From a virus: a stretch of 59,973 nt of DNA. The stretch lies in the IMG/VR virus record IMGVR_UViG_3300045988_079322, one strand, 5' to 3'. The notes beneath the pieces are model-generated. The model saw nothing but the letters and a program-made list of their open reading frames with translations, ran no database searches and was not told the DNA's origin. The position numbers and the translations under genes are program-made. The stretch's first letter is position 1, and each line of letters begins with the position of its first letter. Positions 43,901 through 56,386 of this stretch are shown in pieces.

Positions 43901-44239
43901 ATGTTTTTCGATACACCCTATTCTGAATTACCAAAACGAGCATAGTATTACTTTAACATTTTAATTATAAGCATAGCAGTATAGCCAGAAGTTCTAACAG
44001 ACATACTTGGACATAAAAACACTGTTGACTTATGGGATGTTCAAAATATCAATAATGCAAGACCAACGGCTTTGCATATTTATGCTTCATATAATTTAGA
44101 TAGAGATTCTGATTATGAAATATGTTGTATCCCACATTAGGTTTTAGAAATAACGCCTAATAACAAAATATCATTCTATGATATGATTGATTATGATACT
44201 GATGATCCATGGGGGCTAGAACCAGATGCAATAGATTAA
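43901..44239 (+). CDS. Hypothetical protein, 112 aa, with 3 in-frame TAG
   Basis: ATG after AGGGAGG. Coherent frame through TAG at 43943, 43982 and 44123. TAA at 44237-44239. Confidence 0.4.
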
Positions 44240-45017
44240 CATAAAAGAATATTTTAAACAATAGAAAGATGAATTGCGGCAGTCCGATGTCAAGCCATCA
44301 TTGACCATAATTGATGCAACTAACGGGGATGCCGGAAATTAGATTTATATATAGAAAAAAGTAGACGACTTTGATGAATTAGGATGGCCAGTAAGCGTGA
44401 TTAAAGTTCCAGAACACTGGACTCCCGCAGATTTAAATAATTACATAAATAGTATAGATACTGATTGTATTATAGCACAAATGCCACTAAGAGATTCATT
44501 GAGTTCTTTTTCTATTGATGTAATTCCTACGATAAAAGACTGCGACGGTTTAACTTCTTCTACTCTTGTTTTACCGGCAACGGTAAGAGGAATAGTAGAC
44601 TATCTTGATGACTGTGGTTTTAAGTATGAAGGTAAAAGTGCTTTAATATTAGGTAGAAGTAATATAGTTGGTAAGCCAATGGCGAAAGAGTTGTTGGCGA
44701 GAAATATGACTGTATCTATCTGTCACAGTAAAACAAATGTAAATGCGAAGCTTTATTTAGCAAGAATAGCAGATTTAGTAGTATCCGCAGTTGGAGATTT
44801 TACTTTGACAAGAGAGGCTTGCCCTCACGCTATTGTTGTTGATGTTGGTATTCGTAGAAATTAGGCGAATTTTATTCAAGGCGATTTTGTTGAACTTGAA
44901 GATATTGCAAAGAGAAATGAAGTGTGGTCAACTCCTGTGCCCGGAGGGGTGGGATTATTGACTAGATTGGGGTTGATGAAAAATTGCTTATAGTTAGCGA
45001 AACAGGCGCGAAGATAA
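44226..45017 (+). CDS. folD: FolD-like bifunctional methylenetetrahydrofolate dehydrogenase/cyclohydrolase, about 263 aa, 6 in-frame TAG
   Basis: N-terminal ...GDAGN-TAG-IYI-TAG-KK... aligns with the FolD SNPASQIYVASKRK motif. Central GKSALILGRSNIVGKPMA matches the Rossmann-fold GxSxxVGxPM. C-terminal VVDVGIRRN-TAG-ANFIQGDFV...STPVPGGVGLLT matches VIDVGINR...TPVPGGVGPMT. TAA at 45015-45017. Confidence 0.75.
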
Positions 45018-45376
45018 TGAAATTCTCAGAAGATTTTGATAATTATGCTAGAGAGGTTCTTCATATTGAAAATCCTTTTCGAGAATTTTATCGTACACAG
45101 GATTCAACATTTAAGACTAATATTGATGGCAGCATAACAGTAGATATGGAGAAATCCAGAGAAATATACAGAGAAACAAAAATAAATAGAGAAGAATGGG
45201 TAAAGCTGAGGAATAGATATATCGCAGAAAGAATATTGCGAGAACTCGGGTATGAAGTCCTATTAGCTTCGTCTTATTTTGAGGATTACCCTGATGCAAT
45301 TCCCTGTGATGGAGCTACAGGACAGTGTTTACTAGATTGTAGAATAAAGGGGTGTAAATATGAACCCATGCATTGA
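45017..45376 (+). CDS. Hypothetical protein, 119 aa
   Basis: ATG overlaps the FolD stop (TAATG). Intact, TGA stop. Confidence 0.45.
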   Translation: MKFSEDFDNYAREVLHIENPFREFYRTQDSTFKTNIDGSITVDMEKSREIYRETKINREEWVKLRNRYIAERILRELGYEVLLASSYFEDYPDAIPCDGATGQCLLDCRIKGCKYEPMH

Positions 45377-45575
45377 TTATTGTTATCTTAGATTGCATCA
45401 ATAGTATGATCCAATTAGATGCGATGATTCATGCGAATATGCAAAAGTAATAAAAGAAAACAAAGAGTTAAAGTAGAAGATCGAGGAATTAAAAACTCAA
45501 CACACTTTATTTGAAAAATAAAATAAGACAATTATTTAATTTTGCCCAACGGCATTTTTATAAAAGGAGGCCGCG

Positions 45576-46340
45576 ATGACAAAACAAGAGCGCGCAATCA
45601 AGGCACGAGCGCATTATGAAGATATTAAAACTAGACTTGCCGCAAACACTAAATTATCTATCGAGCGCACATATGTATATAGTCCAGATTCTTTTACACA
45701 GCATGAATCCGGCAATCAGAAACCAGCTTTTACTCTAACAGATATGGATAGCGTATCTTGTCTATTCAACTTATCTGACAATGGTAGAACAGCAATTCTT
45801 AACTATGCCAGTTATAAAAGTCCTGGTGGTTTCTTCCTAGAAGGTAGTCCTGCGCAAGAAGAGGCTCTGTGTCATGAATCCAATCTTTACCCTATTCTTC
45901 TTGCTTTTGATGGGACGTATTACGCATGGAATCGGCAGAGGTTAAATAAGGCTTTATACTTGAATAGAGCGCTGTATTCTCCTAGTGTAGTATTCGAGCG
46001 GAATGACAAACAAAAGAAAGCAGATGTTATAACTTGCGCGGCCCCGAATTTCCGAACGGCGCATAGATACCAGAGTGTGAGTAAAAGCGAGAATGATAGA
46101 GTTCTTGAAAATCGAATTCACTTTATGTATCAGATTGCTGAGGAAAACGGTGTGGAAAATCTAGTCGCGGGAGCTTGGGGTTGTGGAGTTTTTATGCAGG
46201 ATCCGTACACGGTCGCAACCTTACTCATAGGCGCAGCACGCAATTATAATATTCCAAATATTTATTTTGCAATTCCTGACCGCAATTCCCAGAATTTTAG
46301 AGCATTTTTGAAAGCAGGTAAAGAATGTATAAACAGTTAA
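45576..46340 (+). CDS. Macrodomain protein of the bacterial PARG-like DUF2263/TIGR02452 type, 254 aa
   Basis: AAAGGAGG Shine-Dalgarno. Motif SPGGFFLEGSPAQEE fits the PARG signature GG-x6-8-QEE. No TAG. Confidence 0.65.
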   Translation: MTKQERAIKARAHYEDIKTRLAANTKLSIERTYVYSPDSFTQHESGNQKPAFTLTDMDSVSCLFNLSDNGRTAILNYASYKSPGGFFLEGSPAQEEALCHESNLYPILLAFDGTYYAWNRQRLNKALYLNRALYSPSVVFERNDKQKKADVITCAAPNFRTAHRYQSVSKSENDRVLENRIHFMYQIAEENGVENLVAGAWGCGVFMQDPYTVATLLIGAARNYNIPNIYFAIPDRNSQNFRAFLKAGKECINS

Positions 46341-46762
46341 TTATAGCTAGAAAAGATTTAAATATGTCTCCGGGTAAGCTAGCTGCGCAAGTTTCCCATG
46401 CTTCTATTGCTTTTCTTTTGGAAAAGATTCTTTGGGGAAGCAAAGAAGTGGTTCGGGAAAGAGATGGCATTATGTATCATATGGATATAAGTCTCGATAC
46501 AGACTTATTCCATGATTGGATAACTGGAGCAGAAACTAAAGTTGTTTGCCGCGCGAAGAATAAAGATGATTTATTGCGAGCGGTCGAAGCAGCTAAAGAG
46601 CTTGGTATGGAGGAGTATAAAGATTACTTTTTGATTTATGATGCTTGCAGGACAGAGCTGGAAAAAGAGAGTCCTGAAGGGACTCTCACTTGTATTGGAT
46701 TTAGACCAATGGAAGCTGAGGAGATTGATAAAATTGGGAAGAAATATCAATTATACCATTAA
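46325..46762 (+). CDS. Peptidyl-tRNA hydrolase, PTH2 family, 145 aa
   Basis: N-terminus LIIARKDLNMSPGKLAAQVSHASIA matches the PTH2 signature (xVVRxDLxMxxGKxAAQxxHA). Overlaps the end of the macrodomain gene by 16 nt. Confidence 0.65.
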   Translation: MYKQLIIARKDLNMSPGKLAAQVSHASIAFLLEKILWGSKEVVRERDGIMYHMDISLDTDLFHDWITGAETKVVCRAKNKDDLLRAVEAAKELGMEEYKDYFLIYDACRTELEKESPEGTLTCIGFRPMEAEEIDKIGKKYQLYH

Positions 46763-46785
46763 GGGATATTTTTGCCCTAACTGTG

Positions 46786-46825
46786 GAGAAAAGATGAAAG
46801 GTTAAAAGTTTAGCCTTTCATCTTT
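46786..46825 (+). terminator. Intrinsic terminator after the macrodomain/PTH2 operon
   Basis: GATGAAAGG-n12-CCTTTCATC followed by TTTTTTT. Confidence 0.6.
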
Positions 46826-47027
46826 TTTTCGTTATTGAGATTGAAAGTGCGATTTAGATTTTGAAATGGCGTGGCAGAACGAATTTGCGAAAAAATTTCC
46901 AGTTTTTCCCAAAATACACGCCCCTCTTTCACATGGTAAAGTATTGAAGTGTAGTTGGCCTCTTTCGCTCGCTAAAGTACGAAAGCAAGAAAGCACGCCC
47001 CTAAAGGAATACGCGCGCGTAAAGGGT

Positions 47028-47068
47028 TTGTGCAAACTGCACAACAAGATGTTATTTATTTTGTGCAA
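47028..47068. promoter_or_regulatory. Cluster of three TTGTGCAA / TGCACAA half-sites (operator-like)
   Basis: TTGTGCAA at 47028 and at 47061, TGCACAAC at 47038. The same octamer as in the cassette operators. Confidence 0.4.
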
Positions 47069-47098
47069 AAGAGAGAGAAAGAAATTTCAAAAAAACTA

Positions 47099-47127
47099 TT
47101 GACAAGTGAGCGTTTTGGTGGTAAACT
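47099..47127 (+). promoter_or_regulatory. Promoter: TTGACA-17-TAAACT
   Basis: Consensus -35, 17-nt spacer ending GTGG. Confidence 0.5.
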
Positions 47128-47194
47128 GGACTTGTCCAGTAGGACAGAGACAAAAGCACAGCACTTTGAAAATTAAAAAATTTCAAAAAAGGTA

Positions 47195-47223
47195 TTGACA
47201 AACTGCTAAAGGTTTGATACAAT
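47195..47223 (+). promoter_or_regulatory. Promoter: TTGACAAACT-17-TACAAT (class A consensus)
   Basis: TTGACA at 47195, TACAAT at 47218. Confidence 0.6.
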
Positions 47224-47276
47224 ACAGACAGAACAAAAGAGAATCACACCACAAAAAGAAAGGGAGTCAAAAGAGT

Positions 47277-47651
47277 ATGAAAAAGATTGATTTTACCAAT
47301 GAAGATCGAGCCATTATTATGGAGTATATGGCGGCTAAGATGGCTAAGTCTGCGGCGGAGGCGGCGGAGAAAGCAGCTAAGGCTAAGGCTAAAGAGCTAT
47401 TCTCCAGATTAGGTAAGGCTTTTAAGGCTACGGACAAAACAAGTTATCTATATGGCACGGTACAAATGCAGGGTAAGGCGAAAGCGGTGGTATATAAAGA
47501 AACTACCGCAAAAGGAACGGTTGACTGGAAAGCCTATGCTATGGCATTAGGTGGAACGGAAGCCGAAGCAGAGCAATTCCGCAGACCTTCCGATATTCGT
47601 ACCTCTTTTGATTGGGCGACAAAGACCCAAGAAGAAGAAATTAGAGGATAA
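47277..47651 (+). CDS. Hypothetical early protein, 124 aa, Ala/Lys-rich N-terminus
   Basis: AAAGGGAG Shine-Dalgarno then ATG 47277. TAA stop. Confidence 0.5.
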   Translation: MKKIDFTNEDRAIIMEYMAAKMAKSAAEAAEKAAKAKAKELFSRLGKAFKATDKTSYLYGTVQMQGKAKAVVYKETTAKGTVDWKAYAMALGGTEAEAEQFRRPSDIRTSFDWATKTQEEEIRG

Positions 47652-47660
47652 CAGTTTATA

Positions 47661-47696
47661 AACCCTGCCTTGCAAAACACAAGGCAAGGCAGGGTT
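47661..47696 (+). terminator. Hairpin terminator
   Basis: AACCCTGCCTTG-n12-CAAGGCAGGGTT. Confidence 0.45.
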
Positions 47697-47726
47697 ATAA
47701 TAATTAAAAGAAAGGGGTATACTATA

Positions 47727-47873
47727 TGTATCAATTACAGGTTTTAGCCAATGAGAAAATGCGCTATTATGAACCATCCACCCTTTCAATGGCAAGATGG
47801 AAAGCCAGTCACGAGATAGTCAATCCCAATCATTGGATTGTAGATTTATCCAGTGGAGAAATCGTAGATTAAA
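47727..47873 (+). CDS. Micro-ORF, 48 aa
   Basis: AAAGGGG Shine-Dalgarno then ATG 47727. TAA at 47871-47873. Confidence 0.3.
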
Positions 47874-47918
47874 AAGAAGCTGACCTAACGGCTATACGGG
47901 GAGAAAGGATAAAAGACT

Positions 47919-48221
47919 ATGAACAATTATATTAAGTGGTTCGTTGGGCCTACTTTTAGAAAGCATGAATTTATTAAACTTTTGCGGTATAAGATGAATG
48001 TGCGTTCCGCAGAGGTAGAGGACGGCATCATCTTAGACCTGGATGCTTTTAATGCCATGCGAGTGGCCTATATGCCACACTGGGCTTATATCAATAGAAA
48101 GTTTATCAATAGCAATCTGCATACCAGAATTGCAAGCGAAGATGAATATAAGATTGCTATGGTTGGAGATACAATCGGTACTGAATGGGTTAAAGAACAG
48201 GAGGCAAAGAAATGGAAATGA
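47919..48221 (+). CDS. Hypothetical protein, 100 aa
   Basis: Intact ORF after GGAGAAAGG. TGA stop. Confidence 0.45.
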   Translation: MNNYIKWFVGPTFRKHEFIKLLRYKMNVRSAEVEDGIILDLDAFNAMRVAYMPHWAYINRKFINSNLHTRIASEDEYKIAMVGDTIGTEWVKEQEAKKWK

Positions 48222-48364
48222 GAATTATTAAGCGGATAGGAGGCGGCATTTGTGCCGCTCTCCTACTCTGGACAGTTCTTAGTTGGGCTGATATAGTGGC
48301 GGATAACTGTGAGCCAAACCCACAGCACAGCGAATATAATATGTTCGTTCTCATGACTAAATAA
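48218..48364 (+). CDS. Micro-ORF, 48 aa, hydrophobic N-terminus
   Basis: ATG overlaps the preceding TGA (ATGA). TAA stop. Confidence 0.3.
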   Translation: MRIIKRIGGGICAALLLWTVLSWADIVADNCEPNPQHSEYNMFVLMTK

Positions 48365-48376
48365 TAGGAGGAAAAA

Positions 48377-48610
48377 ATGTATAGAGGGACTTATATCGAC
48401 GCCATGGGCCGCAAGCGCAGAGAGATGGGATATTTCAGTCTTAATAAGCCCACTCTGAATAAACTCCATATACCAGTAATTGTCCAAGCGAGAGATAAGA
48501 CAAGTGCGGCGAATAAAATCAATAGGAAATATAAATTGCGTATAAGTCCCAGCAATCTGCGGGAGGTGCCGATGGGCACGGGCTATCTCATGGAAACCAT
48601 GGAGCTGTAA
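48377..48610 (+). CDS. Hypothetical basic protein, 77 aa
   Basis: AGGAGG Shine-Dalgarno then ATG. Confidence 0.45.
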   Translation: MYRGTYIDAMGRKRREMGYFSLNKPTLNKLHIPVIVQARDKTSAANKINRKYKLRISPSNLREVPMGTGYLMETMEL

Positions 48611-48687
48611 AGGAATAATACTTGACTGGCAATCTACACAAAGATTGCCAGTCATTTTTATGCACTTTTCCATATTGACTTTTCGCC

Positions 48688-48720
48688 GGGCCGCCAGCGT
48701 GCGCCGCGGCCCGAATTTTT
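48688..48720 (+). terminator. Cassette copy 1: GC-rich hairpin terminator
   Basis: GGGCCGC-n11-GCGGCCC followed by AATTTTT. Confidence 0.5.
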
Positions 48721-48795
48721 ATTTATTCGGCAATTTCAACAATTATATGACCGAAAGTTTGTGCAATTCGACGAAAGTTTTTCTCCCGAAATTAC

Positions 48796-48824
48796 TTGAC
48801 ATTCCTTTTCCCATGTGTTATTAT
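48796..48824 (+). promoter_or_regulatory. Cassette copy 1 promoter: TTGACA-17-TATTAT with TGT
   Basis: Preceded by TTGTGCAA at 48749-48756. Confidence 0.55.
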
Positions 48825-48877
48825 ATACTTGTCCAAAGGGACAGGTCACAAAAAGAATTTGAAAGGAAGTAAAAAAA

Positions 48878-49117
48878 ATGACTTTAGATATGGTTGCTTG
48901 GTTACTTTCTCCGCTTGCAGAAGATACTATGTTCTTTGACGGGGAGGGATTCGAAATTATCAATAAGAATACCCAAGCTCATTACCATGAATTACCTGAT
49001 GGTAGAATAACTCTGGGAGGAGACGTAATCGAGGTATCTAAGGAATGGGTTCTGGGACTTCAGGTAACCGACATTGAGGCAAGAGATAACAATTTAATCA
49101 TTTATGTAGATGGTTAA
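48878..49117 (+). CDS. Hypothetical protein, 79 aa
   Basis: Intact, after GGAAGT Shine-Dalgarno-like sequence. Confidence 0.45.
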   Translation: MTLDMVAWLLSPLAEDTMFFDGEGFEIINKNTQAHYHELPDGRITLGGDVIEVSKEWVLGLQVTDIEARDNNLIIYVDG

Positions 49118-49179
49118 GAAAACTTGCGGGAGTGGAGGCCACAAACCTCTACTCCCCACGATAAAAAGGAGGAATAAAT

Positions 49180-49395
49180 ATGATTGCTGTTATTAAATTT
49201 GAAAGTGCAGAAAAGTCTGTGGAGTTTGGAAACACAATTTGTAATATGGCTGGCTGGTGTTTGGGTCATCCTCTCAATTCCAATGCTACCGGCTGTGTTT
49301 GTACACTTGATTTTAATACCGGCGACAAGCAAGATAGAGCCTTATATAATTATCTGCTAAAAATTGGAGCTTTCGAGGAGGTGGAACTAAAGTGA
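49180..49395 (+). CDS. Hypothetical protein, 71 aa
   Basis: AAAGGAGG Shine-Dalgarno. Confidence 0.45.
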   Translation: MIAVIKFESAEKSVEFGNTICNMAGWCLGHPLNSNATGCVCTLDFNTGDKQDRALYNYLLKIGAFEEVELK

Positions 49396-49510
49396 GTATT
49401 GAGCGTTTACCGCATACATATCCTATCGGTTCCACTGTTTGGACAAATAAGGGATATGGCACAGTTCTACTTCACATTGGTAAATACCATCTGGTTTGGC
49501 TACAGAGATT

Positions 49511-49546
49511 AGGGCTGGCGTAATGCCGGCCCTATTGATTTTTTCA
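49511..49546 (+). terminator. Intrinsic terminator
   Basis: AGGGCTGGC-GTAAT-GCCGGCCCT followed by ATTGATTTTTT. Confidence 0.5.
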
Positions 49547-49597
49547 AAAAAATATATTATAATAATTATAGAAAAATAAAGAAAGGAGTTTTTCTAA

Positions 49598-49714
49598 TGA
49601 CCTTAGAAGTGCTGAAAGCACTCGCGGTTATTTTGGAGTTCTGTTTGAACTAGGATTCTTGCAAGAATTGTCCTATGTCTCAGTTCTGCCAGAAAATGCC
49701 TTGCGAGTGGTAAA
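49598..49714 (+). CDS. 38-aa Cys-rich micro-protein with one in-frame TAG
   Basis: AAAGGAG Shine-Dalgarno then ATG 49598. ...EFCLN-TAG-DSCKNCPMSQFCQKMPCEW, TAA stop. Confidence 0.3.
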
Positions 49715-49801
49715 TGTTCCTTCCGATTGTTCTAAATCGGCGATTCCCGTGATGGAGTCGTTTTTCGCACGAGCCTAGGTCACTAGAATTTATTTATCAA
49801 A

Positions 49802-50035
49802 ATGCAAGAAACTACTTTCTCTCGCAAATTGGATTCAAGTGGTAGAATTATGATTCCGATTCGTTTGCGTGAACAAATGGGACTTACTTCCGGTTAGGAA
49901 TACTATTTCACTACTATGGTAAAAGATGGCAGAAAATACATCTGCATTGACTGCGGATCGGTTGATTCCTCACTTGAAGAAGCTATGAAAATTATCCAAG
50001 CAAACGGATTAAAGATTGTTGAAAATGCCGATTGA
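49802..50035 (+). CDS. AbrB/MazE-family (swapped-hairpin) DNA-binding protein, 77 aa, interrupted by one in-frame TAG
   Basis: RKLDSSGRIMIPIRLREQMGLTSG-TAG-EYYFTTMVKDGRKYI matches the AbrB/MazE consensus (GRVVIPIELRRxLGIxEKDxLEI). TGA stop. Confidence 0.5.
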
Positions 50036-50079
50036 CTTCTCAAAAGAAAGGGAGTTGTTGGTATGCAGAAATTAATGAC

Positions 50080-50110
50080 CTCCTGAAATTCAGGAGGTTC
50101 TTTTTTTATT
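50080..50110 (+). terminator. Intrinsic terminator
   Basis: CCTCCTGAAATTCAGGAGG followed by TTCTTTTTTT. Confidence 0.6.
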
Positions 50111-50115
50111 CGTTC

Positions 50116-50152
50116 GCCCGGCCGTGCACCACAGGCGCGGCCGGAATTTTTT
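50116..50152 (+). terminator. Cassette copy 2: GC-rich hairpin
   Basis: CCGGCCG-n13-CGGCCGG followed by AATTTTTT. Confidence 0.5.
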
Positions 50153-50165
50153 ATCAAGAGGCAAT

Positions 50166-50197
50166 TTGCACAATTTTAGGCTCGAATTGTTGTGCAA
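50166..50197. promoter_or_regulatory. Cassette copy 2 operator: TTGCACAA-N16-TTGTGCAA perfect inverted repeat
   Basis: TTGCACAA at 50166-50173 and TTGTGCAA at 50190-50197. Confidence 0.55.
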
Positions 50198-50226
50198 TCT
50201 GATGGAAGATTTTTTCCCAAAATCGC

Positions 50227-50255
50227 TTGACTTTCTATCTGTTATCTGTTATACT
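50227..50255 (+). promoter_or_regulatory. Cassette copy 2 promoter: TTGACT-17-TATACT, followed by the conserved leader ATCATCAAGAGGGGAGAAC
   Basis: 17-nt spacer. The leader 19-mer at 50260-50278 is identical to 53034-53052. Confidence 0.55.
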
Positions 50256-50308
50256 TGTATCATCAAGAGGGGAGAACAAAAGCCCTCGAAACAAAAGGAG
50301 AATGAGTT

Positions 50309-50542
50309 ATGTATCTGGTAATGGCTGACAGTAGAGAAAAGATTATCGGCGTTTCTGATACTGAAACTGGCGCACGCCATGCGGGATGGGACTGGCTCAA
50401 GGCCCAGTATTCCGAAAGCGAGTGGAGCCAAATTCTGGAAGATATGGACTATGAGAATGAAGGGGACTTGCGGCATGACCTTCTCATGGGCGCATATTGG
50501 GAAGATTTCGATATGGAGATTATCGAGGTTAAGAGGGTATAA
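50309..50542 (+). CDS. Hypothetical acidic protein, 77 aa
   Basis: AAAAGGAG Shine-Dalgarno. Confidence 0.45.
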   Translation: MYLVMADSREKIIGVSDTETGARHAGWDWLKAQYSESEWSQILEDMDYENEGDLRHDLLMGAYWEDFDMEIIEVKRV

Positions 50543-50571
50543 ACCCTCTTAACCAGAAAAGGAGTATATAT

Positions 50572-50724
50572 ATGACTACCTTCACAATGATTGTTTTGAT
50601 TGCGTTTGTGGCCTGCCTTGCATGGCAGTTAATGGCGGCTGCTCAAAAGAGCTGTATTCGGCTTGAAATCATGTTTGCCGCAGAAATTCTAATGTTCGCA
50701 TATTTGGCAAAAAATTTGATGTAA
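50572..50724 (+). CDS. 50-aa hydrophobic micro-protein (single transmembrane)
   Basis: AAAAGGAG Shine-Dalgarno then ATG 50572 (MTTFTMIVLIAFVACLAWQLMAA...). TAA at 50722-50724. Confidence 0.4.
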   Translation: MTTFTMIVLIAFVACLAWQLMAAAQKSCIRLEIMFAAEILMFAYLAKNLM

Positions 50725-50728
50725 AGGG

Positions 50729-50757
50729 TTGACAAACCGCTTAAACAGTGGTATAAT
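50729..50757 (+). promoter_or_regulatory. Class A promoter: TTGACAAACC-17-TATAAT (ends GTGGTATAAT)
   Basis: Consensus hexamers, 17-nt spacer. Confidence 0.6.
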
Positions 50758-50808
50758 CAATAATGTAAAGAGAAGGAAAACTCATTAAACCAGAAAGGAA
50801 ATATTGCT

Positions 50809-51039
50809 ATGTATAGAATGACTGAGCAGGATAGACAGGGGATTATTCTTCTGCATAAGACCATGGAGGAGTTCTGCCCAGGAGAAGCAGCACAGGCAAT
50901 GCTCCAGTCTTTGGGAAAATTCCTGCGGATCGGCATGTGTACTCCCGATGACGCGGCCGATATTATCAAGGGTATTTTCGATGAGGAAGCCGATAAGACA
51001 GTTGATGAAATGACTATGATGGATTTACTTTCCTTGTAA
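50809..51039 (+). CDS. Hypothetical protein, 76 aa
   Basis: Intact ORF after GAAAGGAAA. Confidence 0.45.
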   Translation: MYRMTEQDRQGIILLHKTMEEFCPGEAAQAMLQSLGKFLRIGMCTPDDAADIIKGIFDEEADKTVDEMTMMDLLSL

Positions 51040-51047
51040 AAAAGGGG

Positions 51048-51076
51048 TTGACAAACTGCCCCTTCTGTGGTACAAT
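51048..51076 (+). promoter_or_regulatory. Class A promoter: TTGACAAACT-17-TACAAT
   Basis: TTGACA at 51048, GTGGTACAAT at 51067-51076. Confidence 0.6.
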
Positions 51077-51136
51077 AAGACTATGGAAGGGGCAGCCCCC
51101 CAAAAATAAATTAAAATAAGAAAGGGAGTTTTAGAA

Positions 51137-51535
51137 ATGCGTGTTACTAAGAGGATTGAAGCCTATATCAATGATGAGGTCAACAAGATTGCGAACGCCA
51201 AGCGAGAGGAAATCAGAGCCAAGTATGCGGACGCTATGAAAGAGTTTGAGGATTTCATCGAGGAAGGCCGAAAAGAGATTGAGGCGCTGAATACAAGGAT
51301 TATTGAGCGCGCCACAGCGAAGGGATATAAGCTCCGCCGCTATTATGACCAGGAGTGTGCCAAGTCAAATATGTGCAGTCTTTACAACCCCATCAACCAA
51401 ACGATGGATGAAGAGCTGTCCACTGTGACAAAGTGGGTAGAGGAAAATGCAAGTCTGATCTGCGTCAAGCTGGAAATGGGCGGCGACATGAAAACTCTGT
51501 CTACTCTGCTTGAAGAACTGCGCAAGGAGTTTTAA
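51137..51535 (+). CDS. Hypothetical protein, 132 aa, predicted helical
   Basis: GGGAG Shine-Dalgarno, TAA stop. Confidence 0.45.
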   Translation: MRVTKRIEAYINDEVNKIANAKREEIRAKYADAMKEFEDFIEEGRKEIEALNTRIIERATAKGYKLRRYYDQECAKSNMCSLYNPINQTMDEELSTVTKWVEENASLICVKLEMGGDMKTLSTLLEELRKEF

Positions 51536-51586
51536 GGAAGGAGGTGGAGAGGGCAAGGCTATTGCTTGCCCTCTCTAATAAAAAAA

Positions 51587-52045
51587 ATGAAAGCAACTGG
51601 CATTGTGCGCCGCGTTGATGATCTCGGCCGGGTAGTAATTCCTAAGGAAATTCGTCGGAATATGAATATTCGGGAGGGCGACCCGCTAGAAATCTTTATT
51701 GAAGATGGCGGAGTGGTTTTCAAGAAATATTCTCTACTATCTTCTTTTGCTCCTCAGGCCGCACATATTCAAAAAGTTTTGAGCATTAACGGCATTTCCG
51801 CGTCGGTTTTTGATAATTCAAGTCTTTTGTGCGGTCCTCGCCCCTTCGGAATGTCAAAGACCCCGGACGAATGGCTCAATATTCGTAATTGGGGTACTGA
51901 ATGGAAGGGAAAGTCGTTGTTTGTTACTCCTATTATCGCAGAAGGTGAGGTAATCGGCTTTATTTGCTATAAAAACGATAAAGAATCGGCGCATGATATG
52001 ATTCGACTTTCTGCGCAATTTCTAGCTCAATTTGCAGAAAACTAA
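51587..52045 (+). CDS. SpoVT/AbrB-type transcriptional regulator, 152 aa: N-terminal swapped-hairpin DNA-binding domain plus a C-terminal (GAF-like?) domain
   Basis: MKATGIVRRVDDLGRVVIPKEIRRNMNIREGDPLEIFIEDGGVVFKKY closely matches the AbrB N-terminus. ATG 51587 follows a hairpin at 51551-51571. Confidence 0.6.
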   Translation: MKATGIVRRVDDLGRVVIPKEIRRNMNIREGDPLEIFIEDGGVVFKKYSLLSSFAPQAAHIQKVLSINGISASVFDNSSLLCGPRPFGMSKTPDEWLNIRNWGTEWKGKSLFVTPIIAEGEVIGFICYKNDKESAHDMIRLSAQFLAQFAEN

Positions 52046-52068
52046 GAGGGCTTCGGCCCTCTTTTTTT
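52045..52068 (+). terminator. Intrinsic terminator
   Basis: AGAGGGC-TTCG-GCCCTCT followed by TTTTTT. Confidence 0.6.
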
Positions 52069-52084
52069 ATATCAAAATTTCGAC

Positions 52085-52115
52085 GGCGCGCTGACGCTCA
52101 CAGCGCGCCGAGTTT
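52085..52115 (+). terminator. Cassette copy 3: GC-rich hairpin
   Basis: GGCGCGCTG-n7-CAGCGCGCC followed by GAGTTTTCTT. Confidence 0.5.
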
Positions 52116-52130
52116 TCTTGTTTGTAAGTT

Positions 52131-52162
52131 CTACACAATTTTTGACTTGAAATCTTGTGCAA
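52131..52162. promoter_or_regulatory. Cassette copy 3 operator: CTACACAA-N16-TTGTGCAA (left half degenerate)
   Basis: Same spacing as copies 2 and 4. Confidence 0.4.
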
Positions 52163-52171
52163 TTTGCCATC

Positions 52172-52200
52172 TTGAAATTATCCTTAAATTATGGTATTAT
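52172..52200 (+). promoter_or_regulatory. Cassette copy 3 promoter: TTGAAA-17-TATTAT with TGG
   Basis: The segment GCCATCTTGAAATTATCC...TATGGTATTATTA is nearly identical to copy 4. Confidence 0.55.
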
Positions 52201-52227
52201 TAGTACAGAAAGAAGGAGGGACACTAA

Positions 52228-52452
52228 ATGAAACCTTCAAAGTTTATTCGGCCTAATGAGTGTTTAACTGTGGCTGAAATCTACCGCCGCCAATTTGGTG
52301 GTACTACCACCCCAGAGAATTATGGGGTCTATATGCAAGCTATTCTTTTGCGCGACCCTCTAATTTATGTGGATTATACGTCAATGCCTTATAAGGTATA
52401 TCGGCATAAAAATTTCTTTGAAAAACTTGTTGACAAGATAGGCAACAGGTAG
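52228..52452 (+). CDS. Hypothetical protein, 74 aa. Its TAG terminator lies inside the next promoter.
   Basis: AGGAGGG Shine-Dalgarno. The stop is TAG 52450-52452. Read-through would add 12 residues, up to TAA 52487-52489. Confidence 0.45.
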   Translation: MKPSKFIRPNECLTVAEIYRRQFGGTTTPENYGVYMQAILLRDPLIYVDYTSMPYKVYRHKNFFEKLVDKIGNR

Positions 52453-52458
52453 TATAAT
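52430..52458 (+). promoter_or_regulatory. Promoter: TTGACA-17-TATAAT overlapping the 3' end of the preceding gene
   Basis: TTGACA at 52430, TATAAT at 52453. Confidence 0.55.
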
Positions 52459-52480
52459 AAAACAAAAGGAGGTTATATAT

Positions 52481-52945
52481 ATGATAACTAAAAAAATGCT
52501 CTGCTTTGATATGGATGGGACTATTGCAGATCTGTATGCAGTCCCTAACTGGCTCGAAAAACTCCGCAAGGGAGACCCCAGCCCATTCCAAGACGCCGCC
52601 CCTATGTGGGATATGAAGGCCCTTCGAAATGCGCTTCTAAACGCAATCAATAAAGGGTGGGAGGTTAGAGTTATTACATGGTTGCCCCCTGAAAGCCCCC
52701 CTGAATATAAGAAAGCAGTCACAGCCGCCAAAAAGGAATGGCTTGCAAGGCATAAATTTCCGGCCCATAAATGCCATTGTGTGGCGTATGGAACAACTAA
52801 AGCTAAATGCGTATTCCGCAGTTTTTATGAACCGCCGTTCATTCTCTTTGATGATAACGACAAAATTAGAAACGGCTGGCATTTAGGGGATACTGTAGAC
52901 CCCCAAACTACAAACATTATTGAATATATCAACAATCTGGACTAA
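52481..52945 (+). CDS. HAD-superfamily 5'(3')-deoxyribonucleotidase-like protein (NT5C family), 154 aa
   Basis: HAD motif I CFDMDGTIADL at the N-terminus. ILFDDNDKI resembles a C-terminal Asp motif. Overall size and layout match NT5C-type dNMP nucleotidases. Confidence 0.55.
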   Translation: MITKKMLCFDMDGTIADLYAVPNWLEKLRKGDPSPFQDAAPMWDMKALRNALLNAINKGWEVRVITWLPPESPPEYKKAVTAAKKEWLARHKFPAHKCHCVAYGTTKAKCVFRSFYEPPFILFDDNDKIRNGWHLGDTVDPQTTNIIEYINNLD

Positions 52946-53002
52946 ATAAAAGGGGCGGGTGAAATCCCCGCCCCATATCTGGAAAATACGTAAAAAAGTT
53001 CT

Positions 53003-53030
53003 TGACAATCTCACTACATTGTGATATAAT
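53003..53030 (+). promoter_or_regulatory. Promoter: TTGACA-16-TATAAT, followed by the conserved leader ATCATCAAGAGGGGAGAAC
   Basis: Leader at 53034-53052. Confidence 0.55.
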
Positions 53031-53079
53031 TTAATCATCAAGAGGGGAGAACCCTCATAAAAGAAAGGGAGTTTTTGTT

Positions 53080-53228
53080 ATGATGAATTTCTACTTTAAG
53101 ACTGCGGCGGGCCATGTGTTCGTGGGTGTGGGTAAGGATGTTGACCGCGCCCGTTCTGACGCCAAGCGCAAGGCTGGTTCCCTTTGGTCGCCTTCGGCCA
53201 AGTGCTTTAAGGTCGGGAACGCCATTTA
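53080..53228 (+). CDS. Micro-protein, 48 aa, basic
   Basis: AAAGGGAG Shine-Dalgarno then ATG 53080. TAA at 53226-53228. Confidence 0.35.
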
Positions 53229-53260
53229 AGGCGTTCCCCGATAGGAAGGAGGTCTCAAAA

Positions 53261-53452
53261 ATGTTTGCTTTTCTTGTTGCTGTCCTCGCGGTTCTTGCCA
53301 CCTGCGTAATTTCTTTCTTCGGCACAGCCCTGCTGATCTGGCTCATCTGTTGGGCGTTCGCTCTCACTTTCTCATGGAAAATCACTTTCGGCATCTGGAT
53401 TATCATTTGCATCCTCAGAAGCATTTTCAAAACCGTAATTCATAGGGATTAA
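53261..53452 (+). CDS. 63-aa hydrophobic membrane micro-protein
   Basis: AGGAAGGAGG Shine-Dalgarno then ATG 53261 (MFAFLVAVLAVLATCVISFFGTALLIWLICWAF...). The ORF-track call 53114..53452 is an N-terminally over-extended version. Confidence 0.4.
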   Translation: MFAFLVAVLAVLATCVISFFGTALLIWLICWAFALTFSWKITFGIWIIICILRSIFKTVIHRD

Positions 53453-53454
53453 AT

Positions 53455-53490
53455 AAAAGCGGGGTGAAAATCCCCGCTTTTATTTTTTTT
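53455..53490 (+). terminator. Intrinsic terminator
   Basis: AAAGCGGGG-TGAAAAT-CCCCGCTTT followed by a T-run. Confidence 0.6.
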
Positions 53491-53497
53491 ATAACTT

Positions 53498-53535
53498 GGC
53501 CGGCCCGCGCACAAGCGCCGCGGGCCGAATTTTTC
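53498..53535 (+). terminator. Cassette copy 4: GC-rich hairpin
   Basis: CGGCCCGCG-n9-CGCGGGCCG followed by AATTTTTCTTC. Confidence 0.5.
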
Positions 53536-53548
53536 TTCTATTGTAATG

Positions 53549-53580
53549 TTGCACAATTTTCAAGCAGAAATCTTGTGCAA
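53549..53580. promoter_or_regulatory. Cassette copy 4 operator: TTGCACAA-N16-TTGTGCAA perfect inverted repeat
   Basis: Coordinates 53549-53556 and 53573-53580. Confidence 0.55.
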
Positions 53581-53589
53581 AATGCCATC

Positions 53590-53618
53590 TTGCAATTATC
53601 CCGAGACTATGGTATTAT
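53590..53618 (+). promoter_or_regulatory. Cassette copy 4 promoter: TTGCAA-17-TATTAT with TGG
   Basis: About 130 nt of transcribed leader with no convincing ORF before the next promoter. Confidence 0.5.
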
Positions 53619-53753
53619 TATCATGTCAGGAGGGAGAGGCCAAGAAATCAAGAGGTCGCGAACTCTTAGAAAGTAGAGGAAGCAAAGAGAAAATAACTAA
53701 ATTCCGATTAGCTATCGGGAGGATTAAGTTAAAAAGTCTTTCCTTTTTCCCTC

Positions 53754-53782
53754 TTGACACCAAGCATTAAATATGCTATAAT
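53754..53782 (+). promoter_or_regulatory. Promoter: TTGACA-17-TATAAT, followed by the leader TCATCAAGAGAAGAAAGG
   Basis: TTGACA at 53754, TATAAT at 53777. Confidence 0.6.
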
Positions 53783-53816
53783 AATATCATCAAGAGAAGA
53801 AAGGACTTGATAGATT

Positions 53817-54641
53817 ATGATTGATAAACGCCGACATTATGTGCTGGTGGTCGATACAGAAACCGCCAACACATTGACCGAGACTATCCCCGCTGAAATC
53901 GGTGAGAACGGGGAAATCATTACCCCGGAGCGCATCCGTATGGATATGTCAAATGTTTTGGTGTATGACTGCGGCTGGGCGGTCGTAGACACCAAGGGCA
54001 ATATTTATGAAACCGCAAGTTTTGTAAATCGGGACATTTTCAATGACGAGCGGGATTTAATGCGGACGGCCTATTATAACTGGAAAATCCCCCGGTATGT
54101 GGAGGAATTGCGTGCCGGCAGTCGCAAGATGGCTACTACCTATGAAATCCGTCAGGCCATGCTGGATACTATCGAGCGATACGGCATTAAGGAGGTCGCC
54201 GCATATAACGCCCGCTTTGATGATAACGCCCTTCGGGTTACTCAGCGTTGGGTCACTTGTTCCAAGTTCCGGTATTGGTTCCCCTTTGACAGCGTGGAAA
54301 TTTGGGACATTATGAAAATGACACAAGATGTCATTTGTCAGATGCCCACCTATAAAAAGTTCTGTGAAGAACATGGGTATATGCAGGCTAACGGCGTTCC
54401 CCGCAAGACTGCGGAAATCGTATGGCGGTTTATCTCCGGCAATACCGATTTTGAGGAAAGCCACACGGGGCTGGAAGATGTTCTGATTGAAGCGGAAATC
54501 ATGTGGTATTGTATGCGCCAGCATAAGCCCATGAGAAAGGCTCTGTATGAGAACAAGCGGGAGTTTCCGCCCATGACAGATTTTCAGCGTCAGCTTTCCG
54601 CAAGTCTGCGGCAAATTCCGACAATCCGGGTCGGGGCTTAA
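53817..54641 (+). CDS. DEDDh (DnaQ-like) 3'-5' exonuclease, 274 aa
   Basis: Exo I VVDTETAN, Exo II AYNARFDDNAL, Exo III ESHTGLEDV. Confidence 0.6.
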   Translation: MIDKRRHYVLVVDTETANTLTETIPAEIGENGEIITPERIRMDMSNVLVYDCGWAVVDTKGNIYETASFVNRDIFNDERDLMRTAYYNWKIPRYVEELRAGSRKMATTYEIRQAMLDTIERYGIKEVAAYNARFDDNALRVTQRWVTCSKFRYWFPFDSVEIWDIMKMTQDVICQMPTYKKFCEEHGYMQANGVPRKTAEIVWRFISGNTDFEESHTGLEDVLIEAEIMWYCMRQHKPMRKALYENKREFPPMTDFQRQLSASLRQIPTIRVGA

Positions 54642-54670
54642 TGCCCCGCCCGGTAGAAGGAGAAATAAAG

Positions 54671-54820
54671 ATGCTTCAAGGATTAAAAAATAAGGCTATC
54701 CGCTTTCTGCTTGAGCGGACGTGCCCGGATGTATTTACCATTAAGGCTATGCTTTCCAAAGTGACGCGGAAAGAGATGCAGTTTTATGTCGATCAATTCT
54801 ACTCAAAGAAAGAGGGTTAA
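54671..54820 (+). CDS. Micro-protein, 49 aa
   Basis: GAAGGAG Shine-Dalgarno then ATG 54671. TAA at 54818-54820. Confidence 0.3.
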   Translation: MLQGLKNKAIRFLLERTCPDVFTIKAMLSKVTRKEMQFYVDQFYSKKEG

Positions 54821-54822
54821 AT

Positions 54823-55005
54823 ATGAAAATAAAAACTGTATATACCTCTTCCCTTTGTCCAGATGCTGTTTTCATGGCGCTTGAAATTATCAAGCGTATG
54901 GGATGGTGTCATGATGAACCAGATGAAAATGGGGATATGTTGGTATCTATTCCCATTGAGGATGAACACTTGTTTGATTTTTTGGATAATTGTCTTTTTG
55001 GATAA
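54823..55005 (+). CDS. Hypothetical acidic protein, 60 aa
   Basis: Intact ORF. Confidence 0.4.
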   Translation: MKIKTVYTSSLCPDAVFMALEIIKRMGWCHDEPDENGDMLVSIPIEDEHLFDFLDNCLFG

Positions 55006-55009
55006 AATA

Positions 55010-55045
55010 AAGAGAGCTTCGGCTCTCTTTTTATTTTTTATTTTT
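55010..55045 (+). terminator. Intrinsic terminator
   Basis: AGAGAGC-TTCG-GCTCTCT followed by TTTTATTTTTT. Confidence 0.6.
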
Positions 55046-55048
55046 GGC

Positions 55049-55082
55049 GGGTCGCGCATGGGCGGCGCGACCCGAGTTTTTC
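55049..55082 (+). terminator. Cassette copy 5: GC-rich hairpin
   Basis: GGGTCGCGC-n7-GCGCGACCC followed by GAGTTTTTCTTT. Confidence 0.5.
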
Positions 55083-55092
55083 TTTGTAAATG

Positions 55093-55170
55093 TTGCACAA
55101 AAATTTCAGCCCCATTTTGTGTAAAATTCTGCACAAAAGCCCTATCCCAAAATTCTGATTTTTTGTGCAA
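55093..55170. promoter_or_regulatory. Cassette copy 5 operator cluster: TTGCACAA-N16-TTGTGTAA plus TGCACAAA and TTGTGCAA
   Basis: Half-sites at 55093, 55117, 55130 and 55163. Confidence 0.45.
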
Positions 55171-55178
55171 TTTGCCTA

Positions 55179-55207
55179 TTGCAATCTGCTTTCTGGTATG
55201 GTAAAAT
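55179..55207 (+). promoter_or_regulatory. Cassette copy 5 promoter: TTGCAA-17-TAAAAT
   Basis: 17-nt spacer, TGG at -15. Confidence 0.45.
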
Positions 55208-55277
55208 ACATTCAGAAAGTGAGAGAGACGAACGGCAGACAGCGACAGCGAACTTTCAAAAATCTTTCAAAAACCCC

Positions 55278-55306
55278 TTGACAAGCCCTTGTGAGTGTGC
55301 TATAAT
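55278..55306 (+). promoter_or_regulatory. Tandem promoter 2 of 4: TTGACA-17-TATAAT
   Basis: Consensus hexamers. Confidence 0.6.
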
Positions 55307-55354
55307 AAGTACAGAAAACAAGGCAAGGAACCTTGAAAAGTGAATAAAAAGGGC

Positions 55355-55383
55355 TTGACAAACTCTCCAAAGTGTGTTACACT
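55355..55383 (+). promoter_or_regulatory. Tandem promoter 3 of 4: TTGACAAACT-17-TACACT
   Basis: Class A -35 context. Confidence 0.5.
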
Positions 55384-55450
55384 ATAAGGGGAACGAGAGA
55401 GGGCAAACAAGTAAAGGGCAAAAGTTCTTGAAAAAAGTTTGAAAAACCTC

Positions 55451-55479
55451 TTGACAAACTCCTAATAGTGTGGTACAAT
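55451..55479 (+). promoter_or_regulatory. Tandem promoter 4 of 4: TTGACAAACT-17-TACAAT
   Basis: Identical -35 context to the promoters at 47195 and 51048. Confidence 0.6.
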
Positions 55480-55528
55480 ATAATCAAAGGACAAGGACAG
55501 TCCTAAAAACCAGAAAGGATGTATCATT

Positions 55529-55930
55529 ATGAGTGAGAAGAAAATCCGCATTACCAAGGCCCAGCGTTTTGAGGACATTAAGGCCCTCTTGACCGGCGGC
55601 GAGGTAAAGCATGGCACGACCATGGAGATTGCCATGACTGTTATCGACCATGAGTTGGAGCTGTTGCGGAAGAAGAATAGCTCCGGGGGAGATAAGAAGC
55701 TGACTCCGACTCAGCAGGAGAACGAGAGCCTTAAGGAGCAGATTATGGAGTATCTTGCCGGTCTGCCCGAGGACACCGACGGCGTGACCTGTACCGACAT
55801 TTTCAAGTCTGTGCCTTCTCTGGCCGCTTTCTCCACTCAGAAGGCCGCCGCCCTTGTGCGGATGCTCAAGCTGGACGGCCGTGTGACCTGTCAGGAGAAG
55901 AAGGGCAAGTCTCTCTTTAAGATGGCGTAA
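55529..55930 (+). CDS. Hypothetical early protein, 133 aa, driven by four stacked promoters; possible winged-helix C-terminus
   Basis: GAAAGGA Shine-Dalgarno. Intact. Confidence 0.5.
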   Translation: MSEKKIRITKAQRFEDIKALLTGGEVKHGTTMEIAMTVIDHELELLRKKNSSGGDKKLTPTQQENESLKEQIMEYLAGLPEDTDGVTCTDIFKSVPSLAAFSTQKAAALVRMLKLDGRVTCQEKKGKSLFKMA

Positions 55931-55938
55931 CCCCGTAT

Positions 55939-55963
55939 AGGGCGGGGTGAAAATCCCCGCCCT
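55939..55963 (+). terminator. Hairpin AGGGCGGGG-TGAAAAT-CCCCGCCCT (weak U-tract)
   Basis: Same loop TGAAAAT as the terminator at 53455. Confidence 0.4.
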
Positions 55964-56068
55964 ACTCTATCTTAGGGGGGTGAGACTATATCAAGCCGTA
56001 TCACTGACGCCGAGAGGTTATCGAGATATAAGCCTCTCCAACTGACACCAGAGGAGGAGGCGGAGCTA

Positions 56069-56386
56069 TTGGCCTATGACAAGGCGGTGGAAGCTGGCGA
56101 AAAAACGCAATACGATTTATCGCCCGATAAAGCGAAAATCGCGCAGAAATTCGCCCATGCTGGCACAAGAAAAACCCCTACCGCCTACAAATTTACACCA
56201 CGGCAACGCAAGCCAAACGCAACTAAAGGCGGCATAATCGCAGAGCTGGCGGACTTTTTGGAAAAAAATAGTCAATTCTCGATTGTTGACCTTGCCATAA
56301 CAAACAAGGAACGCCAAATTGCGTTTTCTATCGGTGGGGATAGTTTCGAGTTAACGCTTGTGCAAAAGCGTAAACCGAAAAAATAA
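56069..56386 (+). CDS. Hypothetical basic protein, 105 aa (TTG start)
   Basis: GAGGAGGAGG Shine-Dalgarno 8 nt before TTG 56069. Confidence 0.45.
   Translation: MAYDKAVEAGEKTQYDLSPDKAKIAQKFAHAGTRKTPTAYKFTPRQRKPNATKGGIIAELADFLEKNSQFSIVDLAITNKERQIAFSIGGDSFELTLVQKRKPKK

Follow-up and report, generated by a model that had tools for sequence, protein, structure and literature searches.

Why do two short genes in the early block of a phage genome each carry exactly one in-frame TAG, when their neighbours nearly lack this codon, and does the TAG determine when their full-length products appear? The question is raised by a cassette of about 440 nt on the plus strand of the IMG/VR virus record IMGVR_UViG_3300045988_079322, a stretch of 59,973 nucleotides that we call the window. 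The cassette encodes a cysteine-rich micropeptide and a small AbrB-like protein. A preliminary description, made from the sequence alone, had proposed that the latter is a regulator which becomes full-length only once suppressor activity exists, as a built-in early-to-late switch. Our analysis suggests that both TAGs are probably ordinary glutamine codons in a TAG-tolerant cassette that is expressed after the code switch, i.e., that they constitute a passive or soft gate rather than a dedicated and indispensable switch. The two genes are the following.

49597-49713, plus strand: micropeptide gene of 38 codons, from ATG 49597 to TAA 49711-13, by direct reading
49802-50035, plus strand: AbrB/SpoVT-fold gene of 77 codons, without a Shine-Dalgarno sequence

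The micropeptide gene reads MTLEVLKALAVILEFCLN-TAG-DSCKNCPMSQFCQKMPCEW, its sole TAG (49651-53) being codon 19, and the AbrB-like gene reads MQETTFSRKLDSSGRIMIPIRLREQMGLTSG-TAG-EYYF...ENAD, with its sole TAG (49895-97) at codon 32. Direct reading and translation thus bear out the claim that each gene is interrupted exactly once, but the coordinates given for it had to be corrected: the micropeptide gene starts at 49597, not 49598, the TAG of the AbrB-like gene begins at 49895, not 49884, and the truncated regulator would have 31 rather than 27 residues.

Two in-frame TAG codons decoded as sense

The window is part of a gut phage genome of about 147 kb in which TAG is recoded to glutamine and which has an SPbeta-type terminase; its close relatives are contigs of about 146-148 kb. 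In the window, open reading frames (ORFs) of at least 100 aa add up to 22.6 kb under the standard reading and to 62.4 kb when TAG is read as sense. The minus-strand late block (5480-43812) contains 305 in-frame TAGs, and none of 62 curated genes terminates in TAG, all of them using TAA or TGA. When glutamine-type codons are counted as TAG, CAG and CAA together, the TAG share in the late genes of the window amounts to 0.51. As many as 104 TAGs are found in the gene for one 2899-aa late protein, and 14 in the terminase gene (39801-41546), whose product, of the SPbeta YonF type, shares 50% identity with the Enterococcus phage H1 terminase and 44% with the one from phAss-1, a TAG-recoded gut phage. 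Among GenBank phages, there was no megablast match to the 44-58 kb region.

Both TAGs of the cassette are in frame, and the genes that contain them are real and under selection. In a protein search, 41 relatives of the AbrB-like protein were retrieved; because the protein database translated TAG as glutamine, the DNA of 33 related loci was read directly, and about 20 terminase-anchored loci also extend to the cassette. The AbrB-like ORF is uninterrupted in every locus read. For codons 33-77, i.e., downstream of the TAG, the ratio of nonsynonymous to synonymous substitution rates (dN/dS) lies at 0.07-0.27 in six of the seven comparisons made with relatives and at 0.62 in the one with L025, at dS values of 0.6-2.0, while codons 2-31 were too saturated for a computation in four comparisons. 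This purifying selection after the TAG indicates that translation continues through it.

The window allele of the micropeptide is intact, with all five cysteines of the motif C-x5-C-x2-C-x5-C-x4-C present, and it differs from that of the relative L001 mostly at third codon positions, the TAG being retained. An exhaustive profile search yielded 64 clusters of 38-42-aa proteins with four invariant cysteines and the consensus M..ELLKAL..I...C..Q.NC..CP...FCGKMP(C/S)EW. The TAG at codon 19 of the window falls on a nearly invariant glutamine of this family motif, which directly supports the reading of TAG as glutamine, and the TAG sites at codons 25, 32 and 40 of the AbrB-like gene likewise align with glutamine in homologues. 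Both TAGs are decoded as sense, and the amino acid inserted is very probably glutamine. The expectation that full-length products arise only under TAG suppression stands, since the phage reads TAG as sense.

The micropeptide has no match in Pfam, NCBIfam or PADLOC and only a weak one in PHROG, to a family of unknown function. The family also occurs without a downstream AbrB-like gene. A distant member, about 50% identical, lies at 2950-3200 of an unrelated 8 kb contig (L120), where promoter, spacer and Shine-Dalgarno sequence are nearly identical and two hairpins lie downstream of the micropeptide gene; in place of an AbrB-like gene, about 700 nt of G+C-rich DNA without a called gene come next.

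With respect to the second gene, its 77-aa product does belong to the AbrB/SpoVT/MazE swapped-hairpin superfamily, with the TAG inside the domain, so that the preliminary description was right on this point; profile comparisons, Pfam matches of orthologues and Foldseek agree in this. The window protein itself scores below the curated cut-offs (MraZ 22.4 bits, cut-off 23; MazE_antitoxin 21.5, cut-off 24.7; TIGR01439 18, cut-off 28.3), and orthologues exceed the Pfam cut-offs (25.7 versus 24.7; 23.6 versus 23). The family profile matches the N-domain of Bacillus AbrB (1z0r, 2k1n, 1yfb) with E = 4.8e-5, and the protein matches phrog_4681 ('antitoxin from a toxin-antitoxin system') with E = 7.6e-8. 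An AlphaFold2 model (mean predicted local distance difference test, pLDDT, 70.7) has a helix at residues 20-26 and strands at 36-41 and 44-49, and its top Foldseek matches are 1yfb, 2k1n, 2ro5, 2w1t and MazE (AbrB-N, SpoVT, Abh and MazE; E of 7e-3 and weaker). A beta-beta-alpha-beta-beta looped-hinge-helix fold is thus predicted with moderate confidence. In this model, the 31-aa fragment would be without strands 3 and 4 of the AbrB fold. Invariant in the family are R8, R15 and R23, which we take to be three of the four DNA-contact arginines of AbrB, as well as a C-terminal C-I-D-C-G.

A search of phages with tblastn gave a single weak match, in a Moorella phage, and no detectable homologue in phAss-1 or any other cultured phage. 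A second SpoVT/AbrB gene, canonical and TAG-free, lies 1.6 kb downstream (51590-52045; MazE_antitoxin 45 bits). Two other gene models were rejected: a split gene (31 aa plus a 39-aa ORF from ATG 49916), because the orthologues are continuous and the TAG site is variable, and an upstream in-frame extension, because the stretch from the preceding TAA to ATG 49802 contains no start codon and the AbrB homology begins at residue 1. No toxin gene of a known family stands beside the AbrB-like gene, the neighbours of 38 aa and (in relatives) 45 aa having no Pfam, NCBIfam or PADLOC matches. Given this, and given that PADLOC reported no defence-system match, we do not class the pair as a toxin-antitoxin module.

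TAG tolerance inside a TAG-avoiding block

The plus-strand genes at 45576-57718 contain 83 glutamine-type codons, of which three are TAG, two in the cassette pair and one in the gene at 52228-52491. That the early genes are otherwise TAG-free, as had been stated, is therefore accurate for about 45.5-57.7 kb with the exception of this last codon, but not for the plus-strand genes just past the divergent junction (44187-45521, FolD and others), which carry nine TAGs. Within the window, two of the seven glutamine-type codons of the pair are TAG, as compared to 0-1 of 75-76 in the other early genes, an excess that is modestly significant (Fisher p = 0.006-0.018). When unique orthologues are pooled, TAG accounts for 25 of the 116 glutamine-type codons of the pair, at five sites, and for 2 of 706 in 25 neighbouring families, these two being singletons. 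Overall, the pair shows no fewer than six distinct TAG sites. The pooled p-value is inflated by the relatedness of the sequences and thus only indicative, but the contrast in distinct TAG sites between the pair and its neighbours is still clear despite this relatedness. In the relatives, this TAG-avoiding block of about 12 kb bears TAGs at the pair only. Synonymous sites are saturated among the lineages, such that the neighbours had ample chance to gain TAG, yet did not. The neighbouring families, about 25 in number, purge TAG, while the cassette tolerates it.

The TAG share of the cassette (about 0.2-0.3) is near that of the late genes of L039-type relatives (about 0.25) and below that of the late genes of the window (0.51). 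Its G+C content and its G+C content at third codon positions (GC3) equal those of the neighbours, and there thus is no sign of a separate origin of the cassette.

Two side observations concern this block. The TAG in the gene at 52228-52491 is codon 75, 12 codons before the TAA in a stretch overlapping the start of the next gene, and it is found in four of five orthologues; it could provide an early stop and late read-through, and hence two C-termini. At the head of the TAG-free block (45576-46762), genes for a microbial PARG-type poly(ADP-ribose) glycohydrolase and a PTH2 peptidyl-tRNA hydrolase are adjacent, and the relative L003 also has a SIR2 gene close to them. The presence of a PTH2 peptidyl-tRNA hydrolase within a code-switching phage may be of interest.

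How the TAG behaves in the relatives is informative for its role. In the AbrB-like gene, TAG at codon 32 is confined to the window clade, TAG at codon 25 occurs in L001-6, L012, L029-30 and L115-117, and TAG at codon 40 in L014, L016, L017, L020-22, L024, L026 and L031-33; it is absent from L013, L015, L018, L019, L023, L025, L027 and L028. At all three codons, TAG alternates with CAA or CAG. In the micropeptide gene, the TAG is codon 19 or 32, or codon 29 in L124, and some alleles lack it. Two TAGs within one gene were not seen at any locus, and exactly one TAG is retained in about three quarters of the loci. Three recoded lineages are TAG-free in both genes, namely L038 (the L025 contig) and L051/L052 (the L019 and L015 contigs), whose terminases have TAG at 5 of 26 and 10 of 27 glutamine-type codons, and L013 (equivalent to L045) is a recoded relative without TAG in the AbrB-like gene. 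More distant relatives have a longer cysteine-rich protein (85-128 aa) followed by the AbrB-like protein, usually beside FolD. Weakly recoded ones among them have one TAG in the cysteine-rich gene (L053) or one in both genes (L098), and the non-recoded relatives L062, L079 and L084 have no TAG in the pair and an AbrB-like gene with a normal Shine-Dalgarno sequence.

The micropeptide, for its part, is frequently damaged. Its alleles in 32 distinct loci comprise 17 intact ones, seven with a single cysteine-to-tyrosine change (C22Y and C25Y each in two separate clades), six with a frameshift or deletion and two with TAA at a position where relatives have TAG. The canonical cysteine pattern is kept in about 30 of 113 protein clusters, and damaged alleles can be common (P0052 on 135 contigs, P0058 on 73). 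In the homologues L001-L052 and P0042-P0154, inactivating alleles recur independently, with cysteine-to-tyrosine or cysteine-to-arginine changes at each of the four core cysteines, and further lesions include many different frameshifts around CPMAQFC, in-frame deletions and changes from TAG to TAA; the AbrB-like gene beside the damaged micropeptides is intact throughout. Such recurrent damage speaks against a switch for which the micropeptide is indispensable.

The idea of a built-in early-to-late switch does not fare well against these observations, since the position of the TAG is not conserved, the codon alternates with CAA and CAG, and recoded relatives without it exist; it is weakened further by non-recoded relatives that carry the same protein family and by the frequent inactivation of the micropeptide. 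Passive tolerance, or a soft gate, accounts better for the positional drift, for the recoded relatives free of TAG, for the occurrence of the same proteins in non-recoded relatives and for a partner that is dispensable. According to this reading, a two-gene cassette with its own sigma-70-type promoter, structured spacer and terminators sits in the standard-code block, and once synonymous sites are saturated about a quarter of its glutamine codons are TAG, the positions drifting from lineage to lineage. As RF1 terminates at TAG in a host with the standard code, transcription before the onset of suppressor activity would yield fragments of 18 and 31 aa only, and full-length cassette proteins would be made only in the code-switched phase. 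Because full-length products would need active suppression, the cassette would be functionally delayed or of a late type.

Several points weigh against this reading. No suppressor tRNA was found in the DNA that was searched, such that a suppressor, as well as the timing and source of suppression, is assumed: ARAGORN detected no tRNA in the 60 kb window, in the cassette loci or in the DNA of relatives within 10 kb of a gene near each window end, about 70 kb of the genome of about 147 kb lying outside this search (an exact-pattern extension past the window end gained 1.5 kb). The cassette promoter resembles that of host sigma-70; transcription may therefore be early, and the TAG would then be more than a tolerated codon, namely an active gate. 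Furthermore, the finding that there are never two TAGs and mostly one is also what weak selection for a single TAG would produce, though with few independent lineages the departure of this pattern from neutrality is only marginal.

Cassette architecture and alternative readings

Apart from the two genes, the cassette and its flanks contain the following features.

49510-49534, plus strand: hairpin resembling an intrinsic terminator, with a T-run, ending the upstream early operon (11-pair stem with seven GC pairs, tail TTGATTTTTT)
49535-49563, plus strand: sigma-70-type promoter, TTGATT-17 nt-TATAAT, no TG extension (10 of 12 consensus matches)
49582-49588, plus strand: strong Shine-Dalgarno sequence of the micropeptide gene, AAAGGAG (direct reading, conserved in relatives)
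49592-49606, plus strand: 5' strand of a long-range helix, covering the micropeptide AUG and codons 2-4 (folds, duplex tests and covariation count)
49723-49740, plus strand: spacer hairpin 1, CCGATT-6 nt-AATCGG (stem kept through different sequences in L013, L015, L018 and L023)
49741-49765, plus strand: spacer hairpin 2, CGATTCC-6 nt-GGAGTCG (hairpin proper 49741-60) followed by TTTTT, terminator- or attenuator-like
49775-49788, plus strand: conserved box CTAGGTCACTAGAA, 3' strand of the long-range helix, ending 13 nt before the AbrB-like AUG
50063-50086, plus strand: 7-codon remnant of a third small gene (alignment with relatives)
50077-50099 and 50118-50144, plus strand: two terminator-like hairpins ending the cassette (terminator scan)

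The relatives have a hairpin at the same place as the one at 49510-49534, and the cassette promoter is conserved at the nucleotide level in all of them as well as in the unrelated context of L120. In all other relatives (compared with L001-L033), the AbrB-like gene is followed by a third gene of 45 aa (MWEFEVLL...) with its own strong promoter, TTGACA-17-TATACT; in the window clade this gene and its promoter are deleted, and seven codons plus the terminator remain (50036-50110). Rfam returned only sub-threshold matches to small RNAs for 49300-50400.

The spacer of 88 nt between the two genes is structured. Since indels put the hairpins out of register when the spacer is aligned with MAFFT, the RNAalifold consensus was poor, and the structures were evaluated by folds of individual sequences and duplex tests. 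The stem of hairpin 2 is also kept through different sequences in relatives (95.9% of cells paired, two pairs changed on both sides), and a scan with a terminator consensus did not flag this hairpin. The segment at 49592-49606 is complementary to the box at 49775-49788, which would create a panhandle of about 190 nt. Both the minimum free energy (MFE) and the centroid fold of 49572-49815 hold this helix (z = -3.6), and it is predicted in every distinct relative, with duplex energies of -10 to -19 kcal/mol (p at most 0.013 versus shuffles). Compensatory variants are found in L018 (CGUG/CACG), L023 and L122 (CUUG/CAAG), L124 (AUCUA/UAGAU) and L127 (CUAA/UUAG); 91% of cells are paired, as opposed to 27-45% in slid controls, and none of 500 shuffles reached the observed number of double changes. 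By these comparisons, the existence and conservation of the predicted helix are well supported. We also considered CTAGGTCACTAGAA as a repeated promoter motif, but the only other good copy in the window is its inverted partner at the start of the micropeptide gene, and the idea was rejected.

An alternative to passive tolerance is that the single TAG is a selected timer, in which case the regulator would appear after the code switch and drive the early-to-late transition, e.g., via TTGCACAA-N16-TTGTGCAA operators. We regard this as unlikely, even though it has several observations in its favour: an in-frame TAG is inherently suppression-dependent, the cassette promoter is of the host type, TAG recurs at different positions but is never doubled within a gene, and the presumed DNA-contact arginines R8, R15 and R23 are invariant. 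Also, 13 of the 14 exact TTGCACAA half-sites of the window are located at 47-57 kb, in the early block, with full N16 inverted repeats at 50166 and 53549. However, the recoded relatives L013, L015/19 and L025/27 have no TAG in the AbrB-like gene; where a TAG is present, its position drifts like a synonymous codon at saturated dS, and the partner micropeptide is often inactivated. As for the operators, the canonical TAG-free SpoVT/AbrB paralogue at 51590-52045 is at least as good a candidate for binding them. No link to late promoters was found, and the late intergenic regions yielded no readable late-promoter consensus. Nor did we find evidence that connects the AbrB-like protein to the TTGCACAA operators or to the control of late genes.

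Regarding possible binding sites as such, the TTGCACAA-N16-TTGTGCAA inverted repeats span 50166-50197 and 53549-53580, with none expected by chance, and several TTGCACAA half-sites lie near promoter-like sites. The CTAGGTCA box is a candidate target besides these sites and the cassette promoter.

The long-range helix invites a different reading, namely that the micropeptide ORF, its TAG and the panhandle of about 190 nt form a translational device which senses suppression and couples synthesis of the AbrB-like protein to the onset of TAG decoding. For ribosomes to pass through the micropeptide ORF, its TAG would have to be read, and this traffic, together with the helix, would set the translation of the gene lacking a Shine-Dalgarno sequence. 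If true, the phage would read out its own code switch. The presence of the predicted helix in every distinct relative, with its compensatory variants and high degree of pairing, would suit such a device, as would the lack of a Shine-Dalgarno sequence at the AbrB-like gene in all relatives of the cassette type and the ability of the 3' end of the micropeptide ORF to pair with the AbrB-like AUG in a short-range fold. We nevertheless consider it somewhat less plausible still than a timer. Leader peptides are usually not conserved as proteins, but the micropeptide is, with four invariant cysteines across a broad family, and many relatives combine a frameshifted micropeptide with an intact AbrB-like gene. 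The position of the TAG varies, and a ribosome terminating at codon 32 would already sit over the ORF's 3' end, while the pairing of this 3' end with the AUG is not in a conserved register. Moreover, the helix could simply silence translation of the micropeptide on read-through transcripts.

That the TAGs are true nonsense mutations, with pseudogenes or functional short fragments as the result, is very improbable: the many disrupted micropeptide alleles of relatives (frameshifts, cysteine-to-tyrosine or cysteine-to-arginine changes, TAA for TAG) would be in line with decay, but the whole genome decodes TAG, purifying selection downstream of the TAG is strong and every locus has an undamaged AbrB-like gene, the window micropeptide keeps its five cysteines and has its TAG on a conserved glutamine, and the 31-aa fragment would lack strands 3 and 4 of the AbrB fold. 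As for degenerate homologues, which had been named as a sign of a decayed pseudogene, micropeptide homologues often are degenerate, whereas the AbrB-like orthologues are intact and neither window gene is a pseudogene.

Two further observations were made in the remainder of the window. Some late genes are free of TAG among TAG-rich neighbours (27528-28058, 29616-31010 and 34155-36514), among them a 350-aa gene (34753-35805) with no TAG in nearly all relatives, which is consistent with TAG avoidance in very highly expressed structural genes. In addition, a diversity-generating retroelement is located at 297-4337, consisting of a Big_3/DUF6273 target gene (297-2102), a 164-aa gene (2184-2678) and an RVT_1 reverse transcriptase gene (3120-4337), which contain six, one and six TAGs, respectively. 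Its 102-nt repeat pair, the variable repeat (VR, 1987-2088) and the template repeat (TR, 2710-2811), is 82% identical, and all 18 mismatches are at adenines of the template copy.

Relation to known systems

That in-frame recoded stops can delay translation has been published (bioRxiv 10.1101/2021.08.26.457843), and the cassette is one instance of this model, in which recoded stops gate translation. It supports the notion that recoded stops sort phage genes by translation time, and it provides a clean natural case in which selection on TAG differs from gene to gene, since one cassette of 440 nt lets glutamine codons become TAG inside a 12 kb block that is nearly free of such changes (about 700 glutamine codons in relatives). 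With only two short genes and two TAGs, it is a small and tractable object for measuring the delay that a code switch imposes. The analysis furthermore brings to light an unannotated family of 38-40-aa proteins with four cysteines, a conserved promoter and alleles that are recurrently inactivated in gut phage populations, to which a conserved RNA panhandle, predicted from the fold and covariation comparisons, is added in the cassette-bearing relatives.

The closest precedent is the work of Borges et al., who described stop-codon recoding as a translational gate in phages that read TAG as glutamine (code 15), including a preferentially recoded homing endonuclease inside an early gene (bioRxiv 10.1101/2021.08.26.457843). 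Like these phages, ours has an early block compatible with the standard code, a recoded late block and a gene with recoded stops embedded among early genes. In contrast to the endonuclease case, the island here is a two-gene cassette whose single TAGs turn over between lineages and are missing in some recoded relatives, and there is no preferential recoding, TAG not being used above CAA and CAG. Phage genomes with blocks of different genetic codes have also been described with Mgcod (bioRxiv 10.1101/2022.06.29.495998), and phAss-1 ('Phassvirus') is a TAG-recoded gut phage with three tRNA-Sup(CTA) genes (PMC10607447). The present phage resembles both in being a large gut phage that uses TAG as glutamine in part of its genome, but an island of about 440 nt in a standard-code block of about 12 kb is far below the block sizes described for them.

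At the protein level, the N-terminal 50 or so residues of the AbrB-like protein match Bacillus AbrB, Abh and SpoVT (1z0r, 2k1n, 1yfb, 2fy9, 2ro5) by profile and predicted fold, and R8, R15, R23, G14 and P19 are shared with them. Unlike AbrB and SpoVT, it has glutamate at the position of R24 and only 77 residues, and its C-terminal half, with the invariant C-I-D-C-G and one helix at 58-67, is unrelated to their C-domains. The fold superfamily, the small size and the match to phrog_4681 are shared with antitoxins of the MazE/PrlF type (JGI labels two homologues PrlF-like), but there is no adjacent gene of a toxin family, the partner being a cysteine-rich protein of 38 aa. Finally, in a leader-peptide attenuator, the translation state of a short upstream ORF selects among alternative RNA structures that control the downstream gene, and the peptide itself is not conserved as a protein. 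The cassette has conserved hairpins and a predicted long-range helix, but its peptide belongs to a conserved family defined by a cysteine motif, which is also found without a downstream AbrB-like gene.

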